Source: Alphaproteobacteria bacterium
GTDB lineage: Bacteria; Pseudomonadota; Alphaproteobacteria; Rickettsiales; UBA3002
Length of the DNA: 64,000 nucleotides
Direction of reading: 5' to 3'
Assembly: GCA_033763655.1 (NCBI GenBank)
Contig: JANRKD010000026.1
Span: 25,922 to 89,921 of the forward strand
The first letter of the stretch is position 1, and every line of letters begins with the position of its first letter. The translations under genes and the position numbers were made by a program. The notes beneath the pieces are model-generated. The model saw only the letters and a program-made list of their open reading frames with translations. It was not told the DNA's origin and made no database searches. This document shows positions 2,209 through 48,487 of the stretch, in pieces.

Positions 2209-2301
2209 GGAGGGGTGGCCGAGTGGCTGAAGGCGGCAGTTTGCTAAACTGTTGTAGGGGGTAAACCCCTACCGTGAGTTCGAATCTCATCTCCTCCGCC
2301 A
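2209..2301 (+). tRNA. tRNA-Ser (anticodon GCU), class II with long variable arm, CCA encoded
   Basis: GGAGGGGTGGCCGAGTGG...CAGTTTGCTAAACTG...GAGTTCGAATCTCATCTCCTCCGCCA. The 7-bp acceptor stem includes one G-U pair. The anticodon loop is TT-GCT-AA, the variable arm is GTAGGGGGTAAACCCCTAC, and the T-loop is GTTCGAATC. Confidence 0.95.
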
Positions 2302-2453
2302 TTAACCAAAGGCCACCACTGCGTGGCCTTTGGTTAATGAGGAGAATGATAGGTTTGCTCACGGTACGTGCGTTCGATTATTTACTTAGCGAGCATCGCG
2401 AGCTTAGGAAATAACGCGAAGCCCTTGCTGAGCATATCTCATCTCCTCCGCCA
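2296..2453 (+). repeat. 158-bp direct repeat, copy 1 (last 6 nt of tRNA-Ser + 15-bp-stem hairpin + spacer + 18-bp duplicate of the tRNA 3' end)
   Basis: CCGCCATTAACCAAAGGCCACCACTGCGTGGCCTTTGGTTAATGAGGAG...GCTGAGCATATCTCATCTCCTCCGCCA. ATCTCATCTCCTCCGCCA at 2436..2453 is identical to tRNA positions 2284..2301. A perfect hairpin lies at 2302..2337. Confidence 0.9.
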
Positions 2454-2820
2454 TTTTACAGCGAACCGCTGAAGTTCGCATAAGACCTCATTTGCAAGGT
2501 TCGAAAACAAAACCTGATCGGGCAAAAGCTATCAAAGAGGCTATGGATTTCCTTATGTTTTTAGGTTCGAATCTCAGTTTCAGAAATCAGAGAAATTTTG
2601 GTTTCATCGCGCAATTGACTTTTTCTTGTATTGAGGTATTGTGGTTTTGCTTTTGGAAAATAGTTTTCCGAAAGTGATATTACTGAAGAAACAAATTTGG
2701 TGTAGAGCACATCGAATTAGGAGAGATACCTTTTTCATATTAGCGCGTTTGCGCAGCTTTTCCCCTTACCAGTTTTGACAGTTTTATCTTTGTATAATTC
2801 ATTATATGGAGAGAAAAACC

Positions 2821-4398
2821 ATGTCTAACATTGCACTAGCTAACAATACCTCATCTTCTTACAGCTATAACAGCTCCCCCAATCCAGCAAAACTTATCGA
2901 GTCTCTACGTCACCTTGGCTACGATAATTACTCTGCGCTGGCAGACATAATCGACAACTCTTTTGATGCCGAAGCCAGTCACATCAAAGTGCTTATCCGC
3001 CAGAAGAATAAGCAGCAAGAAATCATTATCGCCGATAATGGCCACGGCATGGATGCCCATATTCTTGGTCAGGCTATTAGGTTGGGCTCTAACACTGAAA
3101 AAAATGCTGAAAGTGATTTAGGCAAATTTGGCATGGGGCTTTGCACTGCAAGCCTTTCTATCTGTCGCCAGACAACTGTAATTACAAAAACGGCTGATGG
3201 CAAAATGCTGAAAGCGGTGAATGATGTCGACGAAGTAATCCGACAAAATGCGTTCGTCAGCTATCTCGGTGAACCGACTTTCGAGGACAAAGCTTTATTT
3301 GAAGAACTTTTAGGAGACTCTGAGAGTGGAACTGTAATTGCCCTTCGTAAATGTGATAACCTCAGCCACAGCAGCAATACTACTAATTTTGCGAATCTGG
3401 CTATCAAGGAATTTGCCAGAATTTTCAGAAATTTCATCAAGGCTGGTATCAAGATTTCTGTAAACGACAAAGAATTATCTGCGATTGATCCATTGGAATG
3501 GGATGACCCGAAAACTGAGCACTATGACGATGGCTTTATCGAAATTGAAGTTGCGAACGAAGATGGAAAAACCGTTACAGAAAAAGTAGCGATTAAACTC
3601 GCTTTCCTAAAACCAAATGAAGAAAAAGGAGAAAAGGAGCGCGACTTTAACCAAAGAACTCAAGGCTTCTATGTGATGAGAAACAATCGCGAAATACTCA
3701 GCGCGAATGCACTTGGCTTGTTCATTAAACACAACTACCTCAACCGCTTTAGGGGCGAAATATCTTTTAGCGGCAATCTTGATAAGTTATTTGGCATCAA
3801 CTTCACAAAGAAGAACGTTGCCATGCATCAGTCGTTATCTGATAAATTAGCAGCTTATATTTCTCCTCAAGTGGCTTCTATTAAAAACAGGGAACAAAAG
3901 AAAACACGAAAAGAAACTCCAGAGAATATTACTGAAATTCATCAAGATGCTGCCAAAGAGATCGGCAAAAAAGCCAAGCTTTTAATGCGGCCTAAAGCCC
4001 CCAAAGAAAAGCGGGAATCTACTGGGGAAACTCCAGAACGCAAATCATCTGCTACTGAACCTAACCGCACCAGAGAGCCTGGTGAAAACAAGCAAGAGGG
4101 TTTTGCCGCTAATTGCGAGTTCAAGGCTGCCAGCATGGGAACTGGTGGCGTTATGTTTGACTCAGAACAGCGTGGTAGAACTACTGTGATTACGTATAAC
4201 TCCGATCATCCTTTCTATCAAAAATTTATTTTGGGTTACGGTGAAACAGATAGGGGTTTAGTTGCTGGCATAGACTATCTTATTTATAGCCTTGCATGCG
4301 CGGAACTAGCTCAGAATCTTGAAGAAGATGATGTGGCACAGCTTGTAAACAACTTCAAAACTATCGTATCTACTAACCTTAGAACACTATTGAGCTAA
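2821..4398 (+). CDS. GHKL-superfamily (MORC/HATPase_c_3-like) ATPase, orphan
   Basis: ORF 2806..4398. ATG 2821 (MSNIALANN) is preferred because GGAGAG lies 8 nt upstream. Bergerat-fold motifs are present: N box ALADIIDNSFDA (2941..2970), G1 DNGHGM (3034..3051) and G2 GKFGMG. A K/E/P-rich linker at about aa 365-440 is followed by a C-terminal domain. The gene is low-GC. Confidence 0.8.
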   Translation: MSNIALANNTSSSYSYNSSPNPAKLIESLRHLGYDNYSALADIIDNSFDAEASHIKVLIRQKNKQQEIIIADNGHGMDAHILGQAIRLGSNTEKNAESDLGKFGMGLCTASLSICRQTTVITKTADGKMLKAVNDVDEVIRQNAFVSYLGEPTFEDKALFEELLGDSESGTVIALRKCDNLSHSSNTTNFANLAIKEFARIFRNFIKAGIKISVNDKELSAIDPLEWDDPKTEHYDDGFIEIEVANEDGKTVTEKVAIKLAFLKPNEEKGEKERDFNQRTQGFYVMRNNREILSANALGLFIKHNYLNRFRGEISFSGNLDKLFGINFTKKNVAMHQSLSDKLAAYISPQVASIKNREQKKTRKETPENITEIHQDAAKEIGKKAKLLMRPKAPKEKRESTGETPERKSSATEPNRTREPGENKQEGFAANCEFKAASMGTGGVMFDSEQRGRTTVITYNSDHPFYQKFILGYGETDRGLVAGIDYLIYSLACAELAQNLEEDDVAQLVNNFKTIVSTNLRTLLS

Positions 4399-4408
4399 TA
4401 AATCTATC

Positions 4409-4435
4409 GAGGGTGGCTTGAAAAAAGTCACCCTC
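4409..4435 (+). terminator. Stem-loop just after the GHKL ATPase stop
   Basis: GAGGGTG-gcttgaaaaaagt-CACCCTC, 11 nt after the TAA. The tail aaatttctt is only weakly U-rich. Confidence 0.35.
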
Positions 4436-4578
4436 AAATTTCTTATGATTTCCGCCAGATAATGTAGTCCAAGGTTTTCTAGAAAGTTAGGGCGCATAAG
4501 CCGATAAACATAGGCCATATTCAACTTTACAATCGCTTGTCTGGTCTGCTCGCAGGTTCGCATAGCGTCTACAGTGTC

Positions 4579-4736
4579 CCGCCATTAACCAAGGGCCACC
4601 ACTGCGTGGCCTTTGGTTAATGAGGAGAATGATAGGTTTGCTCACGGTACGTGCGTTCGATTATTTACTTAGCGAGCATCGCGAGCTTAGGAAATAACGC
4701 GAAGCCCTTGCTGAGCATATCTCGTCTCCTCCGCCA
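4579..4736 (+). repeat. 158-bp direct repeat, copy 2 (att-like)
   Basis: Near-identical to 2296..2453, with a few substitutions (AAAGG->AAGGG in the hairpin, CTCATC->CTCGTC). It ends in ATCTCGTCTCCTCCGCCA (4719..4736). Confidence 0.9.
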
Positions 4737-4824
4737 CGGGGATGGGCGGCCATTTGTAATAATTCTGTAACAATCTCATGCTAGGATAAACATTATTGGA
4801 TAATGCTTAAAATACTGGATAAAT

Positions 4825-5799
4825 ATGGAAGCGACGATTTTAAATCATAATCAAGTCTTCAATACCTACGATGATCGTGAAGAGAAGCAGCTACAGATAT
4901 TTAAAGACTATGGCACGAAGACAGGATTGAGCGATCTGGCTATATTCCTTGGCGGCCGTTTGGGGTTGCCGCTTCGTAACCCAGATAAAACCAGCGATGG
5001 GCAACGCTCGGGTTTTGTCTACACTGCTTCGTCAGCTCGCGCAGAGATGTTCACTGTGCCAATAGGCAAGGTGAGCACAGTAGCCCCAACTGGTCGAGAA
5101 ACTCAAAGTGATTCGCAATCACGAACATGCGGCATACGCCTCGCCTTACCCCCCGAGGTAACATCTTCAATTTTGCCTGATAAAGAAAAAACGCATCCAA
5201 AAAATCAATCGCTAAGAATAGTTGAATACGGGGAATATCCGCAAAGCATAGCTTATGACAGCGAGGCGTTAGAGCATGAATTTCAGAAGCAACCTTTCGT
5301 CAAGACAGGTGCGCAATACACATTTGATGGCGAGGCGGCTGATGCGCACGATAAACCGTTTAACCCAATAAAATACGATGAATACGAGCATGACGACAAA
5401 CGTTATATCCGTGTAGAGGCGCGCCCAACGGTAAGCTATAAAGAGTGTTTGGATGGCCATTTGGAGAGCAACGCTATCCTATCAAACGGCCAGGAAGTGA
5501 AAGAGGGAGACATCGGCTGGATAGAAGTTCAGCCTGTCGAATGGCTCGCTGATCCATCAGGTTGGTGGGTGACAAAGCAAGGGTTGGTCGCTGGTGTTCA
5601 ATATGATGTCAAAAGAAAATATGACGGCAATTTTAATGAAACAAATGCAAATAAGTTCATCAACGAGGTGATGTTGAAAGAAATCCTGCCTGAAAGAGAT
5701 AGAGCCAAGATTGCTGGAACAATTCCACCCACTCGCGCTGATGGCAATAATTGGATTGACTCGCTTGGTGGTAGGTCTGGGCGTAAAATTGGCGAATAG
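4825..5799 (+). CDS. Hypothetical protein, paralog of 8445..9563
   Basis: 324-aa ORF in the second AT-rich segment. It shares multiple conserved blocks with ORF 8445..9563: YGTKTGLSDLA, DGQR.G.V..ASS, CG.R.ALP, VEYGEYPQ, DKPFN, YIRVEA.P, W.EVQP.EWL.DPSG, AGVQ.D, YDG.F..TN. Confidence 0.7.
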   Translation: MEATILNHNQVFNTYDDREEKQLQIFKDYGTKTGLSDLAIFLGGRLGLPLRNPDKTSDGQRSGFVYTASSARAEMFTVPIGKVSTVAPTGRETQSDSQSRTCGIRLALPPEVTSSILPDKEKTHPKNQSLRIVEYGEYPQSIAYDSEALEHEFQKQPFVKTGAQYTFDGEAADAHDKPFNPIKYDEYEHDDKRYIRVEARPTVSYKECLDGHLESNAILSNGQEVKEGDIGWIEVQPVEWLADPSGWWVTKQGLVAGVQYDVKRKYDGNFNETNANKFINEVMLKEILPERDRAKIAGTIPPTRADGNNWIDSLGGRSGRKIGE

Positions 5800-6376
5800 T
5801 TAACAAGCTATACATTAATGCTTAATCCTCATTTTTTACGCTTATTTAGCTGTCAAGAATACCATGCCTAGCGTAGTATTCATGACAGCAAAGTGGGTTT
5901 TGAGAGCCGCAGTTTGCCTCATGCCTTTTTATAACGAGAAGCGAGCGGTGTAACCAACAGACCGCCACCGTACGCCCTGCGGGCTTCGGGGGGCAGAGCG
6001 AGCGGTGTTTTTGGAGATAATAACTTCAAAGAAATTATTACCAAGAGGGTTCAGTCAATTAAGAATCACGCCATGCAGCTATCTCAAGGTGTGAACAACG
6101 TCTCGAGGTGTAACACAAAGATTTCATCGACACATTGCTCACCTAAGAATCAGAATCACACCGCCATAACCCGGCTCGCCGCCCTGCTTGACCTTCCGCC
6201 CGTTATCGGATAGGTTGGTTGCCCTGATGTCGTTGGTATGCTGGCGCGCGGCGCCACACCCTGCCACCGCTCAGCGGGTTCCCTTTCACAGGGTTCCGTT
6301 CCCGAAAGACGACCCTTAAAAAATCAAAAACACTACAGGCTGCCAGAGACAAGACCCCTACTACAGGAGGCACGTC

Positions 6377-7399: not shown

Positions 7400-7427
7400 G
7401 CCGTCACCAGTCGCCAGCCCCTTCCGT

Positions 7428-7615
7428 GTCATGCCGTCTTTCATGACAGCCTACAGCTTTTTTTAAGGTAGGCAGACCCCGCAATCAATGCAGGGAGTGA
7501 AGGCAGGTGGTATCGTTTCGCGATTCTTTAATTCATCAGCTCTTCAGTTTTTCACTTCATCAACGCATCAATTCGCTACTGACTCAATTCGCCATTTCGT
7601 CAATTTCTCAAGTCG
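7428..7615. repeat. Degenerate copy of the modular intergenic repeat family (hairpin GTCATGCCGTCTTTCATGAC, GGTAGGCAGACCCCG, GTGAAGGCAGGTGGTATCG, TTCACTTCA tract, GCTACTGAC)
   Basis: Colinear short matches to 22675..23010: GTCATGCCGTCTTTATGAC, CGGTAGACCCCG, GTGAAGGATAGGTATGG, TTCACTTCC tract and the heptamer array. Confidence 0.55.
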
Positions 7616-13199: not shown

Positions 13200-14399
13200 C
13201 TACCTCGCCACAATGCGCAGCACCAGCCCGCCCCACAGGATGCATAGCAGCGAGCCGCCGATGACGCCAATTTTGACCATTTCCTGAAGCGGCGCCGCCT
13301 CGAAAGCGAGCATGCCGATGAACAAGCTCATGGTGAAGCCAATGCCCGCCACAATCGACACCGCATAAAGATGCCGCCATTGCGTCGCCTCGGGCATCCG
13401 CACCAGCTTTGTTTTAATCAGCAGCCATGACGTGCCGAAAATACCAATTTGCTTCCCAAGCAGCAGCCCAAGCGCGATGCCCAGCGGCAGCGGTTCGAGC
13501 AGGCTGGCGATACTCAGCCCCGCAAGGCTGACCCCGGCGCTGGTAAACGCAAACACCGGCAGCACCAGAAAGCTCACCCACGGGTGCAGGAAATGCATGC
13601 AGGCATTGAGCGGCGAGTGGCGGTCATCCTCGCCCGCACGCATCGGGATGGCAAAGCCGACAATGACCCCGGCCAGCGTGGTATGAATGCCCGAGTAATA
13701 GAAACAGAACCAGAGGAACACCCCGACCAGCATATAGGGCGTAAGAATCGCGATATTGGCGCGATTAAAAAGGGTCAGCAGGAAAATGCCGCCCGCCGCC
13801 AGCAGAAGCGGCAGCAGCGCAAGGCCGGTGTTATAAAAGGCGGCGATGACGATAATCGCGCCCAGATCGTCGAAAATAGCCACCGCCAGCAGAAAGATTT
13901 TAATCGCCGGCGGCATGCGTTTGCCCAGCAGCGTGAGGATGGCCAGCGCAAAGGCAATATCCGTCGCCGAAGGGATTGCCCAGCCATTGACCGTCTCGGG
14001 GCTGTCATGGTTCAAACCGAAGAAAATCAGCGCAGGCAGCGCCATGCCACCCATTGCGGCGAATAACGGCAGCATGATCTGGTCGCGGCGAGAGAGGAAT
14101 CCCTCTTTCATCTCGCGCTTCAGCTCCAGCCCGATAATCAGGAAGAAAAACACCATCAGGATGTCTTTGACCCAGTTTTTCAGCGGCTCGACGGCAATGC
14201 TGTCGCCGACACCAAACGCCAGCGGCGTGCTGACCAGTGCCTTATAGAGTGCCGCCACCGGCGAATTGGCCGCCAGCACCGCCAGCAGCGCAAACAGAAT
14301 CATCAGCACACCGCTGGCGGATTCTGTTTCCATAAACTCGCGGATATTACGGGGTAAAAGGCCTTTGCGAACGGCGTGTATTTCTGAAGGATGCTGCAT
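13200..14399 (-). CDS. nhaA: Na+/H+ antiporter NhaA
   Basis: ORF 13200..14438 (GTG). The alternative ATG at 14399 (MQHPSEIH) is used here. It is multi-TM, with typical NhaA blocks: [53 protein letters not shown]. Confidence 0.9.
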
Positions 14400-14444
14400 G
14401 ATAGGATTGCTGTTACTGCATTTCCCCTCCCTTGTCACCCCTTG

Positions 14445-14690
14445 CGGGAAATTTTACCACCCAACTCTTCCTTCGCCGCTTCCCTCACCCCAACCCTCTC
14501 CCGCAGGCGGGAGAGGGAGCGACTCCCCTCGTTGGCCACCGTCCTCTATTCACTTCACTTTCTTCACTTCCTTCCTTTCTTTCTTCACTGGCTACTGGCT
14601 ACTGACTACTGGCTACTGGCTACCGGCTACTGACAACCCCTTTTGCCACGCGACTCTAACCGCTCGACTCTTCCCTTCCCTCACGCTATA
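14445..14690. repeat. Modular intergenic repeat, copy C: palindromic Q block (14494..14517), polypyrimidine tract, 6-unit heptamer array (14590..14631), P-like block
   Basis: CCCTCTCCCGCAGGCGGGAGAGGG is followed by TTCACTTCACTTTCTTCACTTCCTTCCTTTCTTTCTTCACT, then GGCTACT GGCTACT GACTACT GGCTACT GGCTACC GGCTACT, then TTTTGCCACGCGACTCT. It lies in the divergent nhaA / ECF-sigma intergenic region. Confidence 0.9.
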
Positions 14691-14698
14691 AACACCGC

Positions 14699-19632: not shown

Positions 19633-20040
19633 ATGTCGCCCCTGCGCCATCGCGAATTCCTCCGCTTCTGCATGGTCGGCTTCCTCGCCTTTCTGGTGGA
19701 TTCGAGCCTGCTCGAACTGTTGGTATATACGGGGCTTACCGCCCCCGTCGCACGCGGACTCTCCATCGCAGTAGCGTTACAGTGCTCGTATTTCCTGCAT
19801 GGCGCATTCACTTTCCGCGCCCACGGAGGCTACAGCATCAAGAGCTGGATGAAATTCATGCTCGGCAACCTGATGGGCGCCGCGCTGAATTATGGCGTTT
19901 TCCTGCTCGTCCTCATGGCGCAGGTGGGTGCCGATGCCCGCATCGCGCGCCTTGCCGCGCTGCTGGCGGGCACGGCGGTGGCGCTGCTGTTTAATTACTG
20001 GGCAAGCCGCCGCTTTGTCTTTGCACGTCGGGAGCCATGA
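19633..20040 (+). CDS. GtrA-family small membrane protein
   Basis: 135 aa with 4 TM segments. It reads FLRFCMVGFLAFLVDSSLL near the N-terminus and ends FNYWASRRFVF. Confidence 0.85.
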   Translation: MSPLRHREFLRFCMVGFLAFLVDSSLLELLVYTGLTAPVARGLSIAVALQCSYFLHGAFTFRAHGGYSIKSWMKFMLGNLMGAALNYGVFLLVLMAQVGADARIARLAALLAGTAVALLFNYWASRRFVFARREP

Positions 20041-21956
20041 TGAAACCCATCCTTCGCCGCCTGCCGCCTGCCCTGCTCGCCACGTTGCTGATTAGCGTGC
20101 CGTACCTACTCTATGCGCTGAGCAAATGGCACGCGATGCCGCTGCATGATGGCATCCCCATCGGCCAGACCGACCCAGACACCTGGCTGCGCCTCACCCT
20201 TGTGCGCGACTGGCTGCTCGGCGGCGGCTGGTACAATCACTCCGTCGCCCACAGCAACGCACCGTGGGGCGGCATCAGCAGCCCGTGGACGCGCCCGCTC
20301 GACCTTGTGATTGCGCTGCTTGTACGCGCGCAGCCCGAGTCGGTGGAGCTTTCCGTACGCCTGATGCGCGCGTCACTGCTGCTGCCGGTACTGTGGATGA
20401 CCCTGCTGGTCGTAGGCATCCACCGCGCCATCCGCGCCCTGCTGCCGCTGCCTTCGGCCTACATCATGGCGGGGGCGCTTATCGCCACCCAGCCGATGAT
20501 GTGGAACTATTTCTCGCTCGGCAATGCCGACCACCACGCGCCGCTTTCCGTGCTGTTTATCTGGGTGATGGGCGGCATCCTCACACCACACCCTTCGCGG
20601 CGGCTGATGCTGTTGACCGGAATGCTGCTCGGCCTGCAACTCTGGATCAGCGTCGAGGCGATGGTGCTCATCGCGGCTATCTACCTGTGGGTTGGGCTGG
20701 GCTGGCTGCGCGGCGAGACTGCCAAAGCCGTGGCACTGGCGCAGTTGACAACGGGCGTCGCACTCACCGCCCTACTCGCTGTGATGATTGAACGCCCGGT
20801 CGCGGCATGGCTGACCCCGGTTTACGACAGCATTTCCGTCGTGCATGTCATCGCACTGCTGCTCTGCGCCGTGCTCGCCGCCCTGCTGCATCATGTGCCG
20901 GTGCGCCACCTGCGCGGGCGGCTGGTGCTGGCCGCCACAGGGGGCGGCGCGCTGCTGGGCGGGCTGCTGCTGACCTATCCGCTGCTGCTGCACGGGCCGA
21001 TGGTCGGGGTGGAACCGTTCATCCACAGTGATTTCCTGCCGCATATCAGCGAAGCCAAACCGTTCTACAAAATTTCACCCCTACTGCTGATGGCGGCGAC
21101 GCTAACCCCGCTGCTTGGGATAATCCTCTGCCTCGCGCCATGGATTCGCCCCGACCGCGCCTTCTACCCTCGCGAACATTCCGCCCAACTGGTATTTTTC
21201 CTCGGCGTGACCCTGCTGCTCTATTATTTTCAGCAGCGCTGGAGCTATTATATGCTGCCGCTGGCCGTGGTGGCGCTCGCGCCACTGCTGGGCGCACTGT
21301 TCACGCCCGAGCATCCGCATGTGGCGACGCGCTGGCCGGCCAACCTGCTGGCGGGCCTTCCCCCCACCACTCAGATGAAACGCCGCCTGCCGGTTATCCT
21401 CGCCCTGCTCGGCGCGCCGTTCATGCTGCTGCTACAGGGTGCCGCCCCGAGCGTGACGGATAAATTATCGCCGCTGACGAGCACCGCTTCCCCCACCGCC
21501 GACGCACAGGCGAAACAGCGCGACGCCTGCTACCGCAAAGCCCGCGTCCTCATCCGCAGCGGCGCACTGATGCGCGCCCTGCCCGACACGCCGCTGACCT
21601 TCCTCGCGCCCACCGACCTTGGCGCGGAGCTGCTGTTCTTCACCCCGCAGCGGATTATTGCTTCGAATTACCACCGCGAAGGAGCTGGCATCCGCTATGT
21701 CTGGGAGGCGGATACCATCGCTGAGCCATCCTCTTTACATGCTTATTTAAAGAAACGCACGGTGGAGGCCCTGCTGCTCTGCCCGAAAGTCGGCCCCACG
21801 AAAGATAGCCTGCTGCAGGCCTATGTGCAGGGCGCGCCGCTACCCGCATGGCTGAAGCCGGTGCCCTACACCCTGCCACCCTCTCCCACCACGGAGAAGG
21901 ATGCTTCCGCGCCCCCGGCCCCCGACCCGCTGCTCCTGCGCATCGTGGCTCCGTGA
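20037..21956 (+). CDS. Large polytopic membrane protein, putative GT-C-fold glycosyltransferase
   Basis: The ATGA start/stop overlaps gtrA. 639 aa with more than 10 hydrophobic segments. The first loop carries GQTDPDTWLRLTLVRDW (a DxD-type acidic motif as in STT3/AglB/ArnT first loops). No WWDxG motif is seen. The C-terminal soluble domain is about 170 aa. Confidence 0.55.
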   Translation: MMKPILRRLPPALLATLLISVPYLLYALSKWHAMPLHDGIPIGQTDPDTWLRLTLVRDWLLGGGWYNHSVAHSNAPWGGISSPWTRPLDLVIALLVRAQPESVELSVRLMRASLLLPVLWMTLLVVGIHRAIRALLPLPSAYIMAGALIATQPMMWNYFSLGNADHHAPLSVLFIWVMGGILTPHPSRRLMLLTGMLLGLQLWISVEAMVLIAAIYLWVGLGWLRGETAKAVALAQLTTGVALTALLAVMIERPVAAWLTPVYDSISVVHVIALLLCAVLAALLHHVPVRHLRGRLVLAATGGGALLGGLLLTYPLLLHGPMVGVEPFIHSDFLPHISEAKPFYKISPLLLMAATLTPLLGIILCLAPWIRPDRAFYPREHSAQLVFFLGVTLLLYYFQQRWSYYMLPLAVVALAPLLGALFTPEHPHVATRWPANLLAGLPPTTQMKRRLPVILALLGAPFMLLLQGAAPSVTDKLSPLTSTASPTADAQAKQRDACYRKARVLIRSGALMRALPDTPLTFLAPTDLGAELLFFTPQRIIASNYHREGAGIRYVWEADTIAEPSSLHAYLKKRTVEALLLCPKVGPTKDSLLQAYVQGAPLPAWLKPVPYTLPPSPTTEKDASAPPAPDPLLLRIVAP

Positions 21957-21980
21957 GAATCATTGTGGCTCCGTGAAAGC

Positions 21981-22047
21981 TTGGTGCCTCCTCTTGCCAC
22001 CCGGGGAGAGCGCCCCTCCCGCCTGCGGAAGGGAATGCAGGAAGCGT
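21981..22047. repeat. Degenerate copy of the palindromic Q block of the modular repeat
   Basis: TTGGTGCC..CTCTTGCC..GGGGAGAGCGCCCCTCCCGCCTGCGGAAGGG..GGAAGCG, compared with 22870..22940. The loop dinucleotide is CT rather than AG, which suggests inverted orientation, but orientation stays ambiguous because the core is palindromic. Confidence 0.5.
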
Positions 22048-22068: not shown

Positions 22069-22473
22069 TTATTTTCCGCGCTTGGCAACAACATCTTTGA
22101 CGGCCCTGCAGCCCGGTGCCTGAAGAGTGCCCATCACAGGGACGTCTTCAAAGACTGCGCACCGTTCTATCGCGAGGTCGTTCACTGGGCCACTGCCAAG
22201 CGCTTCATTGAACTTCGCATCTCCGTAGCCTAGGGCATAACCTACTTTTTCTGGGATGCTGCTATGCGGTTCGCGCGTTGCCAGATAGTCTTTGGTTGCT
22301 GCGCATGAAGGGCCATTGCTATCGCCACAAAGATCCGCATGCGCTTCATTAGCGATATTTAGGCCAAGCGCGTTATTCGCCTTTGCTGCAAGTGCTGTTG
22401 CGTTGTAAATTACTGCATCGGCTGCCATCGAAAGCTTGCTCTCTTCCTCCGGTTTATCGTTCTGATTCGTCAT
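22069..22473 (-). CDS. Hypothetical small protein (134 aa, 4 Cys), low-GC orphan
   Basis: ORF 22069..22491. The ATG at 22473 (MTNQNDKPEE) is preferred because GGAG lies 6 nt upstream. I recognise no motif. Composition differs from the backbone. Confidence 0.45.
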   Translation of the reverse strand: MTNQNDKPEEESKLSMAADAVIYNATALAAKANNALGLNIANEAHADLCGDSNGPSCAATKDYLATREPHSSIPEKVGYALGYGDAKFNEALGSGPVNDLAIERCAVFEDVPVMGTLQAPGCRAVKDVVAKRGK

Positions 22474-22525: not shown

Positions 22526-22535
22526 CCCCCCCCCC
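22526..22535. repeat. Homopolymeric C10 (G10 on the minus strand) tract upstream of ORF 22069..22473
   Basis: ctttaCCCCCCCCCCgttaaaaatcc, 53-62 nt upstream of the ATG at 22473. Confidence 0.9.
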
Positions 22536-22650
22536 GTTAAAAATCCATTAACGCCATATGAAGTTTTTGTGACAATGAAAAAGGTGGATAATTCAATCCG
22601 CTACGGTGCAAACAATCCACGCCGGAAGCTTGAACGCCGACCATAACCCC

Positions 22651-23100
22651 GGAATTGTCATGACCCCAGGAATTGTCATGCCGTCTTTATGACGGCATCC
22701 ATCTTACGGTAGACCCCGTCATACGACGGGGTGACATGTGAAGGATAGGTATGGGGTTAGGCGCTGTGGGCTGTAGGTTGGGTGTGGAAGCTGTGCGCTG
22801 TGGGCTGTAAGCTGTGGTTGGGGCCACCCACTTTTTTACTACGCGACGCTCGACTCTCGCCACGCGACTCTTCTCTTGCCGCTTCCCTCACCCCAGCCCT
22901 CTCCCGCAGGCGGGAGAGGGAGCGACTCCCCTCGTTGGCACCATCCTCTATTCACTTCCTTCCTTCACTTTCTTTCTTTCTTTCTTCACTTCCTTCGCTG
23001 GCTACTGGCTACTGGCTACTGGTGACTGGCTACTGGCTACTGGTGACTGGCTACTGGTGACTGGTGACTGGCTACTGGCTACTGGCTACCTCTCCACTCA
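22651..23100. repeat. Modular intergenic repeat, copy B (most complete): hairpins, P block (22833..22880), palindromic Q block (22897..22920), polypyrimidine tract (22945..22999), 13-unit heptamer array (23000..23090)
   Basis: GGAATTGTCATGACC/GGAATTGTCATGCC; ATGCCGTC-tttat-GACGGCAT (22678..22698); ACCCCGTC-atac-GACGGGGT; TTTTTTACTACGCGACGCTCGACTCTCGCCACGCGACTCTTCTCTTGC; CCCTCTCCCGCAGGCGGGAGAGGG. The heptamer array is 13 units of GGCTACT (9, the last reading GGCTACC) and GGTGACT (4). Confidence 0.9.
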
Positions 23101-23200
23101 ATTCATAACCCGGGATGTGAATAGGCGTTGCGGGAAGCGGCCCGGCATGCCAGTTTAAGCCACCGATGAATGAACCAACCCGCATCCACAGGGAGCCACC

Positions 23201-24539: not shown

Positions 24540-26234
24540 CTACTTTTCAGAGAGCGCCCGGATGCGCCGACTGATTTCTACCACTGCACTGGATGCTTGC
24601 TGGGTATTGGATGAGATTTCCTTAGTGACTGCCGTTTGTTCCTCGATTGCCCCGGCTACACCCGTGACATATTGGCTCAGCTGCCCGGATGCCTCGACAA
24701 TCTCTCCAATACTGCCTGCCACCTCGGAGGAAATCGCCTGAACAGAGGAAATTTCATTGGCGATATCGTCGGTCGCTTTAGAGGTTTGAGTGGCCAAACT
24801 TTTTACTTCACTGGCAACAACGGCAAACCCCTTACCAGCTTCGCCAGCCCTTGCCGCTTCAATGGTTGCATTCAGTGCCAGCAAATTCACTTGCCCTGCA
24901 ATACTGCGGATTAAATCCACGATATTTCCCATAGAAACCATTGTAGCAGACAAGCGGTCACTGGCAGCCCCCGACGACTGCGACTTCTGCATAATATTGG
25001 TCGTCGCCTGCTGCGATAACGACATATTCTTGCTGATTTCACCTACCGAGGCAGTCATTTCCTCCGTGGCTGCAGCCACGTTTTGCACCTGCTGGCTGGT
25101 CACATCCGCAAGCTCAACCGTTTTCATGAGCTCCGTCATATCCGTGGCAAACTTCACAACTTTAAAGGGAGTGCCGTTCATATCGAGGATAGGATTGTAC
25201 GAAGCCTGAATATAGACTTCCCTCCCCCCCTTACCAATGCGCTTGTATACGCGTGAGTCAAACTCACCACGGTTGAGCCTTGCCCAGAATTCTTTATACT
25301 CGGAACTCTGCGCGTAAGCAGGCTCCGCGAACATGCTGTGATGCTTTCCTCGCACCTCAGGCAAAGTGTACCCCATCACCTTGAGGAAATTCTCGTTGGC
25401 CGTGATAATCGAGCCATCAAGGTTAAACTCTATCACCCCCTGAACTTTGCCGATAGCATCAAGCTGCCCCCGAACATCCGCATTGGCTAATTTCTGCGCC
25501 GTCACATCCGTCGCGTATTTTACAACTTTGAAAGGCTTGCCATCCATATCGAGAATGGGGTTATAGGAAGCCCGAAGCCAGACTTCTTTGCCACCTTTGC
25601 CCAGACGCTTATATTCCCGCGAGTCAAACTCACCACGGTTGAGCTTTGCCCAGAATTCTTTATACTCGGCACTCTGCGCGTAAGCAGGCTCCGCAAACAT
25701 ACTATGATGTTTTCCCTGAATTTCTGCAAGGCTATACCCGATAGTCTTCAGGAAGTTTTCATTGGCGGTAATGATAGTTCCATCCATGTTAAACTCAATC
25801 ACCGCCTGCGATCTGCCGATGGCCTTGACTTGCCCAAGGGCGTCGGCATCCATCAGTTTTTTCTTCGTGATATCTGTGGCGATTTTTATGACTTCGTAAG
25901 GCTCGCCATTGCGATTAAGAACGGGATTATAGGAAGCCTGAAGCCAGACTTCCTTGCCGCCTTTACCAAAGCGCTTATATTCCCGTGAATCGAACTCTCC
26001 GCGGCGGAGCTTTTCCCAAAACTGGCGATATTCTGCGCTCTGCGCATAGGCAGAGTCGACAAAAATGCTGTGATGTTTCCCGCGAATCTCGTCGAGCGTG
26101 TAGCCGATCACCTTTAGGAAGTTTTCATTGGCGGTAATGATGCTTCCGTCCATGTTGAACTGAATCACCGCCTGCGATTGCTCGATTGCATCGAGCATTG
26201 CCACACATTTAGCATTGGAGGAAAAAGGAAACAT
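24540..26234 (-). CDS. Soluble methyl-accepting chemotaxis protein with three tandem PAS domains
   Basis: 564 aa with no TM segment. Three repeats of about 122 aa read [25 protein letters not shown]......S.EY..FW..L.RGEF. The signalling domain contains [33 protein letters not shown] is lower than the flanks (by eye). Confidence 0.9.
25105..26202. repeat. Three tandem 366-bp units inside the MCP gene (the PAS triplication)
   Basis: CACCACGGTTGAGC(C/T)TTGCCCAGAATTCTTTATACTCGG.ACTCTGCGCGTAAGCAGGCTCCGC occurs at 25265 and 25631 (offset 366 bp). A third, more diverged unit lies near 25997. Confidence 0.75.
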
Positions 26235-32285: not shown

Positions 32286-32404
32286 GTCATGCCGAACTTG
32301 TTTCGGCATCCATCAAAGGCGCGGTTAGCGCCGGCATGACTACTGAAAGATTCTTTCCGCGCCAGACAGCGCTTCGATGGATCCTGAAACAAGTTCAGGA
32401 TGAC
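32286..32404. mobile_element. 119-bp MITE-like element with 29-bp imperfect terminal inverted repeats, each arm itself a hairpin
   Basis: The left arm is GTCATGCCGAACTTGTTTCGGCATCCATC (32286..32314). The right arm is GATGGATCCTGAAACAAGTTCAGGATGAC (32376..32404). The arms are 25/29 identical after reverse-complementing, and the 4 differences form two compensatory pairs that keep each arm's stem. The element abuts the prfB stop codon. Confidence 0.6.
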
Positions 32405-48301: not shown

Positions 48302-48424
48302 GCAAAAAATCCTGGGATTCTGGCCTTCTCGGTCAGACTTTCTTGCAGACACACAGGGGGCACAATGATTGATGGTGCCCCCTTTTTTTGCGCGTCTTCA
48401 TGACGGGGCGGGAATGACGTGGGG

Positions 48425-48487
48425 TGAGGTTGGCACCATTTTTTACCACGCGACTCTCGACTCTCGCCACGCGACGCTTCTCTTGCT
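48425..48487. repeat. Partial copy D of the modular repeat (right arm of Q palindrome + TTGGCACCA + P block)
   Basis: GGGGTGAGGTTGGCACCATTTTTTACCACGCGACTCTCGACTCTCGCCACGCGACGCTTCTCTTGC, compared with 22833..22880. Confidence 0.85.

Follow-up and report, generated by a model that had tools for sequence, protein, structure and literature searches.

We analysed an intergenic repeat assembled from several short modules in the window, a stretch of 64,000 nt (64 kb) of contig JANRKD010000026.1 from an uncultured alphaproteobacterium. The fullest copy of the repeat (copy B, 22651-23100) is located between an orphan gene encoding 134 aa and the tautomerase-hisZ genes, which are divergent. It contains all six parts that the original prediction had listed: small hairpins, a P block, a Q block, the further part GTTGGCACCA between the Q hairpin and the CT-rich tract, this tract itself, and a heptamer array. 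A second full copy (copy A) lies between the divergent nhaA and sigF (ECF sigma factor)/nrsF pair. Modules were also found at loci C, D, and E. All five loci sit between open reading frames (ORFs), as had been proposed. The features are listed below by copy or locus; z scores of local alignments were calibrated against shuffles.

Copy B, 22642-22735, plus strand: hairpin module with an 18-nt tandem duplication at 22642-22680 and two hairpins
Copy B, 22675-22700, plus strand: hairpin 1, ATGCCGTC/GACGGCAT
Copy B, 22714-22731, plus strand: hairpin 2, CCCCGTC/GACGGGG
Copy B, 22755-22831, plus strand: decayed heptamer tract of GCTGTRG units, then GGTTGGGGCCACCCAC (Tandem Repeats Finder period 7; lag-7 identity 0.52)
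Copy B, 22832-22879, plus strand: P block, full form (nhmmer E=1.5e-15)
Copy B, 22885-22920, minus strand: TMECO/BoxC-type motif CCCTCTCCC-GCCTGC-GGGAGAGGG-CTG-GGGTGAGGG, that is, the Q block plus upstream CCCTCACCC
Copy B, 22897-22920: Q hairpin CCCTCTCCCGC-AG-GCGGGAGAGGG
Copy B, 22921-22944, plus strand: linker AGCGACTCCCCTCGTTGGCACCA, the same in copy A up to GTTGGC
Copy B, 22945-22997, plus strand: CT-rich tract of CTTC/CTTT/TTCAC units, 87% pyrimidine, longest pure run 20 nt (22968-22987)
Copy B, 22998-23089, plus strand: heptamer array, CTGGCTA x13.1, with four CTGGTGA variants and a 21-nt higher-order period (Tandem Repeats Finder score 128-150)
Next to copy B, 23113-23141, minus strand: inverted condensed echo of the element, reverse complement GCCGCTTCCC-GCAACGC-CTATTCACATCC, without the TMECO motif
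Copy A, 14452-14481, plus strand: short P form (one unit), TTTTACCACCCAACTCTTCCTTCGCCGCTT (alignment)
Copy A, 14482-14517, minus strand: TMECO/BoxC-type motif CCCTCTCCC-GCCTGC-GGGAGAGGG-TTG-GGGTGAGGG
Copy A, 14518-14586, plus strand: linker (14518-14541) and CT tract (14542-14586), longest pure pyrimidine run 20 nt
Copy A, 14587-14632, plus strand: heptamer array, CTGGCTA x6.6 (Tandem Repeats Finder), with private variants CTGACTA and CCGGCTA
Copy A, 14637-14685, plus strand: second, degenerate P block (nhmmer E=1.3e-8), running into CTTCCCTCAC
Locus C, 48421-48486, plus strand: GGGGTGAGG, TTGGCACCA and a full P block (local alignment z=26.5)
Locus E, 21995-22031, minus strand: diverged, inverted Q hairpin and linker (alignment z=7.3; nhmmer E=0.064)
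Locus D, 7427-7459, plus strand: hairpin module alone (TGTCATGCCGTCTTTCATGAC...), 33 nt in common (z=8.6)

The unit of the full copies and the identity of its Q block

In a blastn comparison of the region with the window, copies A (14457-14632) and B (22860-23035) aligned over 178 nt with 88% identity (E=1e-54). In this common composite, the end of P is followed by Q, the linker, the CT tract, and the heptamer array of CTGGCTA units. The outer flanks and the neighbouring genes of the two copies are unrelated. The whole unit (P, TMECO motif, linker, CT tract, heptamers) was copied at least once within 8.4 kb, and fragments of it are present at two more intergenic sites, one with P alone and one with Q plus linker in inverted orientation. 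Four motifs (Q hairpin, P core, GTCATGCCG...CGGCATCC hairpin, and heptamer pattern) were each commoner in the window than in any of its 100 dinucleotide shuffles; GTCATGCCG occurred six times versus 0.98 expected.

Judged by its sequence, the Q core is an already described, widespread motif that was first named BoxC, later PIT element, and for which the TMECO pattern was defined by Holder et al. (2015, PMC4666352). These authors counted 3610 occurrences in 262 proteobacterial genomes. On the minus strand, Q together with upstream CCCTCACCC fits the pattern CCCTCNCCC-N3-6-GGGNGAGGG-N3-GGGNGAGGG exactly in both full copies, and a pattern scan yielded these two exact matches (14482-14517 and 22885-22920, minus strand) versus none in 100 shuffles. 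In total, the window holds two exact copies and one degenerate copy of the motif. All are intergenic, two between divergent genes and the one at locus E between convergent genes. TMECO in E. coli K-12 is likewise always intergenic; its number differs strongly among strains, it marks unusually rearranged regions, and Holder et al. reported no association with promoters, terminators or mobile elements for TMECO/PIT/BoxC (PMC4666352). The identity of Q explains the most conspicuous part of the repeat. It had been missed when the repeat was set apart from a simple repetitive extragenic palindromic (REP) sequence, Q being a known intrastrand-triplex motif (PMC4666352).

When the region 22640-23100 (461 nt) was compared by blastn with 72,556 plasmids and chromids, matches were obtained through the TMECO part alone. 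They were located at 58 places in 24 records from seven genera (Pantoea, Azospirillum, Cupriavidus, Variovorax, Sinorhizobium, Methylobacterium, and Mitsuaria), always in unannotated intergenic DNA, and showed 87-98% identity over 36-55 nt. E. coli sequences were 87% identical to the core over 39 nt. Overall, identity of the core to such intergenic copies was approximately 90%. Alignment with the Azospirillum, Mitsuaria, and Cupriavidus copies showed that the core is kept, together with a preceding GCCGCT and a following AGC, and that the flanks are unrelated.

The Q hairpin had been described as a perfect palindrome; its 11-nt arms in fact flank a non-palindromic AG centre (2 mismatches, opposite strand). 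Folded as DNA, the core of copy B gave a 10-bp hairpin (z=-2.9). A single-stranded core of the type CCCTCTCCC-loop-GGGAGAGGG-loop-GGGTGAGGG could form a hairpin, a purine-motif intrastrand triplex or a (G3N3)3G3 quadruplex, of which the Watson-Crick hairpin alone was predicted here. The same G-rich part was presented by Kaplan et al. (2016, PMC5100583) as a G-quadruplex-hairpin-duplex switch. In both full copies, the minus strand is the G-rich one. As the plus-strand GC skew is uniformly negative, this strand would serve as the lagging-strand template, an arrangement to which two copies lend no statistical weight.

Accessory modules, array turnover and occurrence elsewhere

The original prediction had counted five or more loci, and this held in part. 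Three loci carry modules of high identity, locus E (21995-22031) is a diverged, inverted Q plus linker, and locus D (7427-7459) is merely a 33-nt hairpin. A profile search of the window returned no copies beyond those listed. The P-like piece at the 3' end of copy A was present as proposed. It runs on into CTTCCCTCAC, the start of a second, truncated unit/Q, so copy A amounts to about 1.2 tandem units. The second P block stops 14 nt short of the ATG of the ECF sigma-factor gene. At locus C, the supposed right arm of Q turned out to be an inverted third-strand-like motif (GGGGTGAGG) plus linker (TTGGCACCA) at 48421-48438. A gap of 4 nt separates the end of the P block that follows from the stop codon of the convergent gene for electron-transfer flavoprotein:ubiquinone oxidoreductase (ETF-QO). 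Locus E lies between the convergent genes 20037-21956 and 22069-22473. The hairpin proposed at 7428-7615 is common to locus D and copy B, whereas the tract downstream of it (7500-7615) is a separate repeat with its own 8-nt period. A further hairpin of the first-hairpin type was found at 32286-32314 (z=4.3).

These hairpins belong to a separate family, GTCATGCCG...CGGCATCC / GGATCCTGAAACAAGTTCAGGATGAC, with members at 32286-32311 and 32375-32404 and also at 22675-22700 and 7428-7451. The 30-nt arm at 32375-32404 recurs with 100% identity on seven plasmids of Sphingobium, Novosphingobium, and Sphingomonas, each time in unannotated DNA.

The P block consists of a T6 run followed by CYACGCGAC 9-mers 21 nt apart, with CGACTCT repeats in between. 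The P blocks at 48439-48486 and 22832-22879 are 94% identical, and GGTTGGGGCCACCCAC in copy B is the counterpart of GGTTGGCACCA at locus C in the local alignment. Lag analysis revealed a weak 7/14-nt periodicity in P. Because of such residual periodicity, both P and 22755-22831 look like decayed heptamer arrays. A tRNA-like origin of GTTGGCACCA was ruled out, as its 9-mer occurs at chance frequency (17 versus 18 expected).

The CT tract had been called pure pyrimidine. Its pyrimidine content is 87% in copy B and 83% in copy A, with a longest uninterrupted pyrimidine run of 20 nt in both copies. The tract of copy B is the sole 50-nt stretch of the window to reach at least 90% pyrimidine. The proposal that it could form triplex H-DNA assumed a pure pyrimidine strand; the tract is in fact interrupted by A residues and offers only 20-nt pure runs and 8-10-nt mirror repeats.

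Downstream of copy B, the reverse complement of 23113-23141 matches the sequences on either side of the TMECO motif plus linker. Two collinear 12-nt inverted matches were found versus 0.15 expected (at most 1 in 40 shuffles). The common backbone GCCGCTTCCC...CTATTCAC has the 60-nt motif plus linker inside it at 22878-22959, and 7 nt instead, in inverted orientation, at 23113-23141. This echo could be an excised site, a never-filled site or a mere local inverted duplication.

Tandem 7-bp arrays were detected in non-coding DNA at 14587-14632 and 22998-23089, and in decayed form at 22755-22815. CTGGTGA accounts for four units in copy B and none in copy A, whereas CTGACTA and CCGGCTA are found in copy A alone. 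The CT tracts of the two copies differ by unit-sized indels. Together, the unit numbers (13 versus approximately 6.6), the private variants, and the unit-sized CT indels indicate turnover or expansion in place after duplication of the unit.

Heptamer arrays were also observed elsewhere. In IMG/VR viral contigs, (CTGGCTA)3 was detected in 10 loci and (CTGGTGA)3 in 17 (27 in total); three composition-matched control heptamers gave 1, 0 and 2 loci. Examples among these viral loci (L020-L029 and L033-L049) include arrays at 1772-1851 of L025, at 2080-2135 and 7972-8027 of L024, and three arrays in L043. The viral arrays were mostly placed at open-frame junctions, some as inverted pairs. With three consecutive units, every reading frame meets a stop codon, which is TAG for the TAGCCAG strand and TGA for the CTGGTGA strand. 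A locus of a related metagenome-assembled genome (MAG; L005, HisZ 85% identical) has heptamer arrays at 5600-5675 and 7507-7552. One is an inverted pair, (GCTGGGT)~5 / (CCAGGAC)~3, embedded in an ORF of 437 aa, and a 14-nt array was found between two convergent ORFs. Members of this clade may generally possess heptamer arrays.

The ORFs that cross the repeat (14266-14691, 22782-23060, and 22814-23158) had been considered artefacts, and we agree, as they have no Pfam or database support beyond heptamer-encoded "LATGYW" repeats. A search of 5.8 billion proteins with these spurious ORFs returned three matches, all through the heptamer-encoded peptide only. One of the three, a TARA scaffold, was rejected as not comparable because it is filled with unrelated satellite arrays. 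The copy B locus was found in a single other public contig, a Logan assembly of DRR729082 (L001, positions 1-43, 100% identical). This contig begins inside the heptamer array, indicating that short-read assembly breaks at the repeat. In practical terms, three supplied ORFs can be flagged as artefacts and the short-read assembly break at copy B is explained.

In the searches made, P, the linker, the CT tract, and the composite heptamer module were not found outside the source genome. The linker 20-mer GAGCGACTCCCCTCGTTGGC had no match in 185,579 species genomes, and its sole match in JGI metagenomes was dismissed as chance, being inside an actinobacterial ABC-transporter gene. The P 20-mer had no match in IMG/VR. 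The modules were also absent from approximately 140 kb around the orthologous tautomerase-hisZ loci of 12 related MAGs (HisZ 69-90% identical at the amino-acid level), labelled Alphaproteobacteria, "uncultured Azospirillum" or Rickettsiales. In the three of these loci that were read, the spacer upstream of the tautomerase gene measured approximately 65-140 nt. Conservation in position across relatives had been named as the pattern that would favour locus-specific regulatory DNA. The modules were missing from all 12 orthologous upstream regions, which indicates that the repeat is not conserved regulatory DNA of this locus.

The gene content of the interval that holds loci E and B was unlike that of every relative examined. 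In relatives, the interval from the orthologue of gene 20037-21956 to the tautomerase gene is occupied by a gene for a methyl-accepting chemotaxis protein (MCP), in some cases joined by one for a small membrane protein. In the window, it is occupied by the orphan 134-aa gene, flanked by the inverted Q copies of E and B. This gene had eight homologues at E<=0.001 among 1.8 billion cluster representatives. Approximately 50 nt upstream of its start (gene 22069-22473), a C10 homopolymer at 22526-22535 (G10 on the strand of the gene) is a potential slippage tract. A direct duplication of GTGGCTCCGTGA(G/A)A is present at 21938-21975, with two copies 21 nt apart, the first of which overlaps the stop codon of gene 20037-21956.

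Further features were observed in the rest of the window. Downstream of hisZ, a gene for a chemotaxis receptor (24540-26234, minus strand) contains a 366-nt tandem repeat (2.7 copies, 69-77% identical) that encodes three PAS domains. This gene separates hisZ from the next conserved gene; those two are adjacent in most relatives examined. Another region, 2209-5800, is a low-GC island (41-47% versus approximately 60% elsewhere) adjoining tRNA-Ser(GCT). Its first gene encodes a 530-aa HATPase_c_3 protein and lies between 158-nt direct repeats (2296-2453 and 4579-4736, 99% identical); just past the second repeat is a gene whose 324-aa product matched no Pfam family. The island looks like an integrated element with att-like repeats.

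Origin of the repeat and alternative explanations

On balance, we consider it likely that the element is a mosaic intergenic repeat specific to this lineage, with a single copy of the widespread BoxC/PIT/TMECO motif as its core. Short-period arrays at differing stages of decay flank this core: the GCTGTRG tract, the P block (CGACTCT/CCACGCG), the CT tract, and the CTGGCTA array. Copying of the unit would have proceeded via recombination or template switching at a structure-prone site, and not by means of a dedicated transposase. After copying, the arrays would have grown and shrunk in place by replication slippage and small duplications, at a site able to adopt hairpin, triplex or G-quadruplex structures when single-stranded. 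Slippage and small duplications would account for the 13 versus 6.6 units, the private variants, and the 21-nt supra-repeat in copy B. The element, probably neutral or selfish DNA, would mainly cause local structural instability; expression of sigF-nrsF and tautomerase-hisZ, downstream of A and B, respectively, may be affected as a side effect.

Several points weigh against this explanation. The count is low: across the 64 kb there are just two full copies, plus two or three fragments. The nearest non-identical HisZ is 88% identical, and gain, loss or array-length polymorphism was not directly observed. The copying mechanism is an inference. A purely neutral model does not explain the extreme cross-phylum conservation of the TMECO core. 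Finally, both full copies are co-oriented with a plus-strand gene, located between divergent genes and 67 and 112 nt upstream of sigF-nrsF (14699) and tautomerase-hisZ (23201), respectively, an arrangement that fits a regulatory role too.

Such a role could be that of a contingency or rheostat locus, in which the heptamers, the CT tract, and the G-rich arm of the TMECO motif would be part of a promoter or 5' untranslated region (5'-UTR) and the unit number would tune downstream expression. The position of the full copies agrees with this, as do their differing unit numbers, and a pyrimidine-rich heptamer with a G-rich partner is an architecture known for hmw (PMC12721329). We nevertheless regard a rheostat as unlikely. 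The genes downstream of the module are housekeeping and stress genes with unrelated functions, portions of it follow convergent genes at loci C and E, and the orthologues in relatives do without it. Promoter and terminator scans of the region gave nothing above shuffle expectation, with no sigma-70-like promoter, upstream of the arrays or elsewhere in the region, and no convincing terminator; the RNA fold of the putative 5'-UTR was no stabler than those of shuffles (z=-0.6).

The original prediction favoured a recombining or mobile element. Its description as modular, non-coding, multi-copy, and intergenic was borne out, and in being short and structured as well, the repeat resembles miniature inverted-repeat transposable elements (MITEs) and REPINs. 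The TMECO hairpin or the GTCATGCCG hairpins of such a non-autonomous element would be recognised by a transposase encoded elsewhere. Several intergenic copies have unrelated flanks, modules hug gene ends (P 4 nt from a stop codon, the second P of copy A 14 nt from a start codon), and the inverted echo lacking the TMECO motif could be an empty or excised site. Mobility itself found no such backing: the unit ends of A, B, and C have no terminal inverted repeats, no target-site duplications flank them, and the module subsets vary among copies instead of forming a fixed unit. The 21 window proteins scanned against Pfam/NCBIfam included no transposase, REP-associated tyrosine transposase (RAYT) or IS200/IS605 gene. 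In addition, Holder et al. saw no link between TMECO and mobile elements (PMC4666352), and the P and linker 20-mers had no genuine match in viral, genome or metagenome collections. We therefore find this origin improbable.

A bolder proposal concerns the echo and the arrays jointly. A filled and an "empty" site of the BoxC/TMECO motif would be preserved here through precise insertion or excision, coupled to CTGGCTA/CTGGTGA arrays that would represent an undescribed, widespread heptamer class in high-GC proteobacteria and their phages, similar to cyanobacterial short tandemly repeated repetitive (STRR) sequences and seeded at structure-prone sites. Although we give this little credence, it would, if true, be a first sequence-level handle on the spread of these cross-phylum motifs, a question left open by the literature.

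Least probable in our view is a transcribed structural RNA module (a terminator, attenuator or mRNA-stabilising hairpin, as for REP, bacterial interspersed mosaic elements (BIMEs) and boxC in E. coli): a strong 10-11-bp GC hairpin, the placement of loci E and C between convergent genes, where terminators are expected, the small hairpin-plus-T6 motifs before P in copy B and at locus C, and the transcription of BIME and boxC elements (PMC3738161) speak for it, but the full copies separate divergent genes, which need no terminator between them, no T-run follows the TMECO hairpin, Rfam gave no match at the gathering threshold nor at E=1, and PIT/BoxC had no promoter or terminator activity in the tests summarised by Holder et al. 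(PMC4666352).

Comparison with known systems

The lineage-specific mosaic repeat shares traits with several known systems. In Haemophilus influenzae, the phase-variable (ATCTTTC)n repeats upstream of hmw1A pair with a G-rich 5'-UTR segment and undergo RNase III processing (PMC12721329). The arrays described here are similar in that pyrimidine-rich heptamers of varying unit number are found upstream of a gene and near a G-rich segment. They differ in that the downstream genes are housekeeping or stress genes instead of surface antigens.

Cyanobacterial STRR heptamers are also intergenic tandem 7-bp units that recur at several loci. They sometimes form hairpins as inverted arrays and have no known function (PMC2670836); G/C triplex motifs are also abundant in the genomes in which they occur (PMC4666352). 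In contrast to STRR sequences, the arrays of the window are found in an alphaproteobacterial host, their units (CTGGCTA/CTGGTGA) are not canonical, and the array is coupled to a TMECO motif and a CT tract.

With the BIMEs of E. coli and the rhizobium-specific intergenic mosaic elements (RIMEs) or Sm-repeats, the repeat has in common an intergenic palindromic unit and a few short motifs whose combinations vary by locus. It differs from BIMEs in having a single TMECO motif per unit, no REP/palindromic unit (PU) consensus, and no pairs of REPs in alternating orientation. Its accessory modules are tandem arrays, whereas those of BIMEs and RIMEs are fixed motifs. No sequence similarity to RIMEs was seen in the plasmid search.

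The closest relation is with BoxC/TMECO itself. The 36-nt core fits the pattern, and the copies are intergenic, multiple, located in a rearranged region, and not tied to a particular gene function. Their G-rich part, GGGAGAGGG(C/T)TGGGGTGAGGG, departs from the two E. coli G-quadruplex motifs in the middle loop alone. The differences are the uncultured alphaproteobacterial host, the first loop (GCCTGC), and the placement of the motif inside a unit of approximately 250 nt (P, linker, CT tract, and heptamers) that is foreign to the 56-bp E. coli BoxC and was not found beside the TMECO copies of Azospirillum, Mitsuaria or Cupriavidus. The BoxC/TMECO motif is thereby extended to an uncultured alphaproteobacterial lineage, inside a larger unit with slippage-prone arrays. 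Its setting in an interval of divergent gene content agrees with the reported link between the motif and local genome instability, as one more example and not as a new mechanism. With a core that was already known and a lineage-specific patchwork of tandem repeats around it, the element is an ordinary kind of bacterial mosaic repeat and not a new element class; the composite unit (P-TMECO-linker-CT-heptamers) is a new, lineage-restricted member of the known mosaic intergenic repeats.

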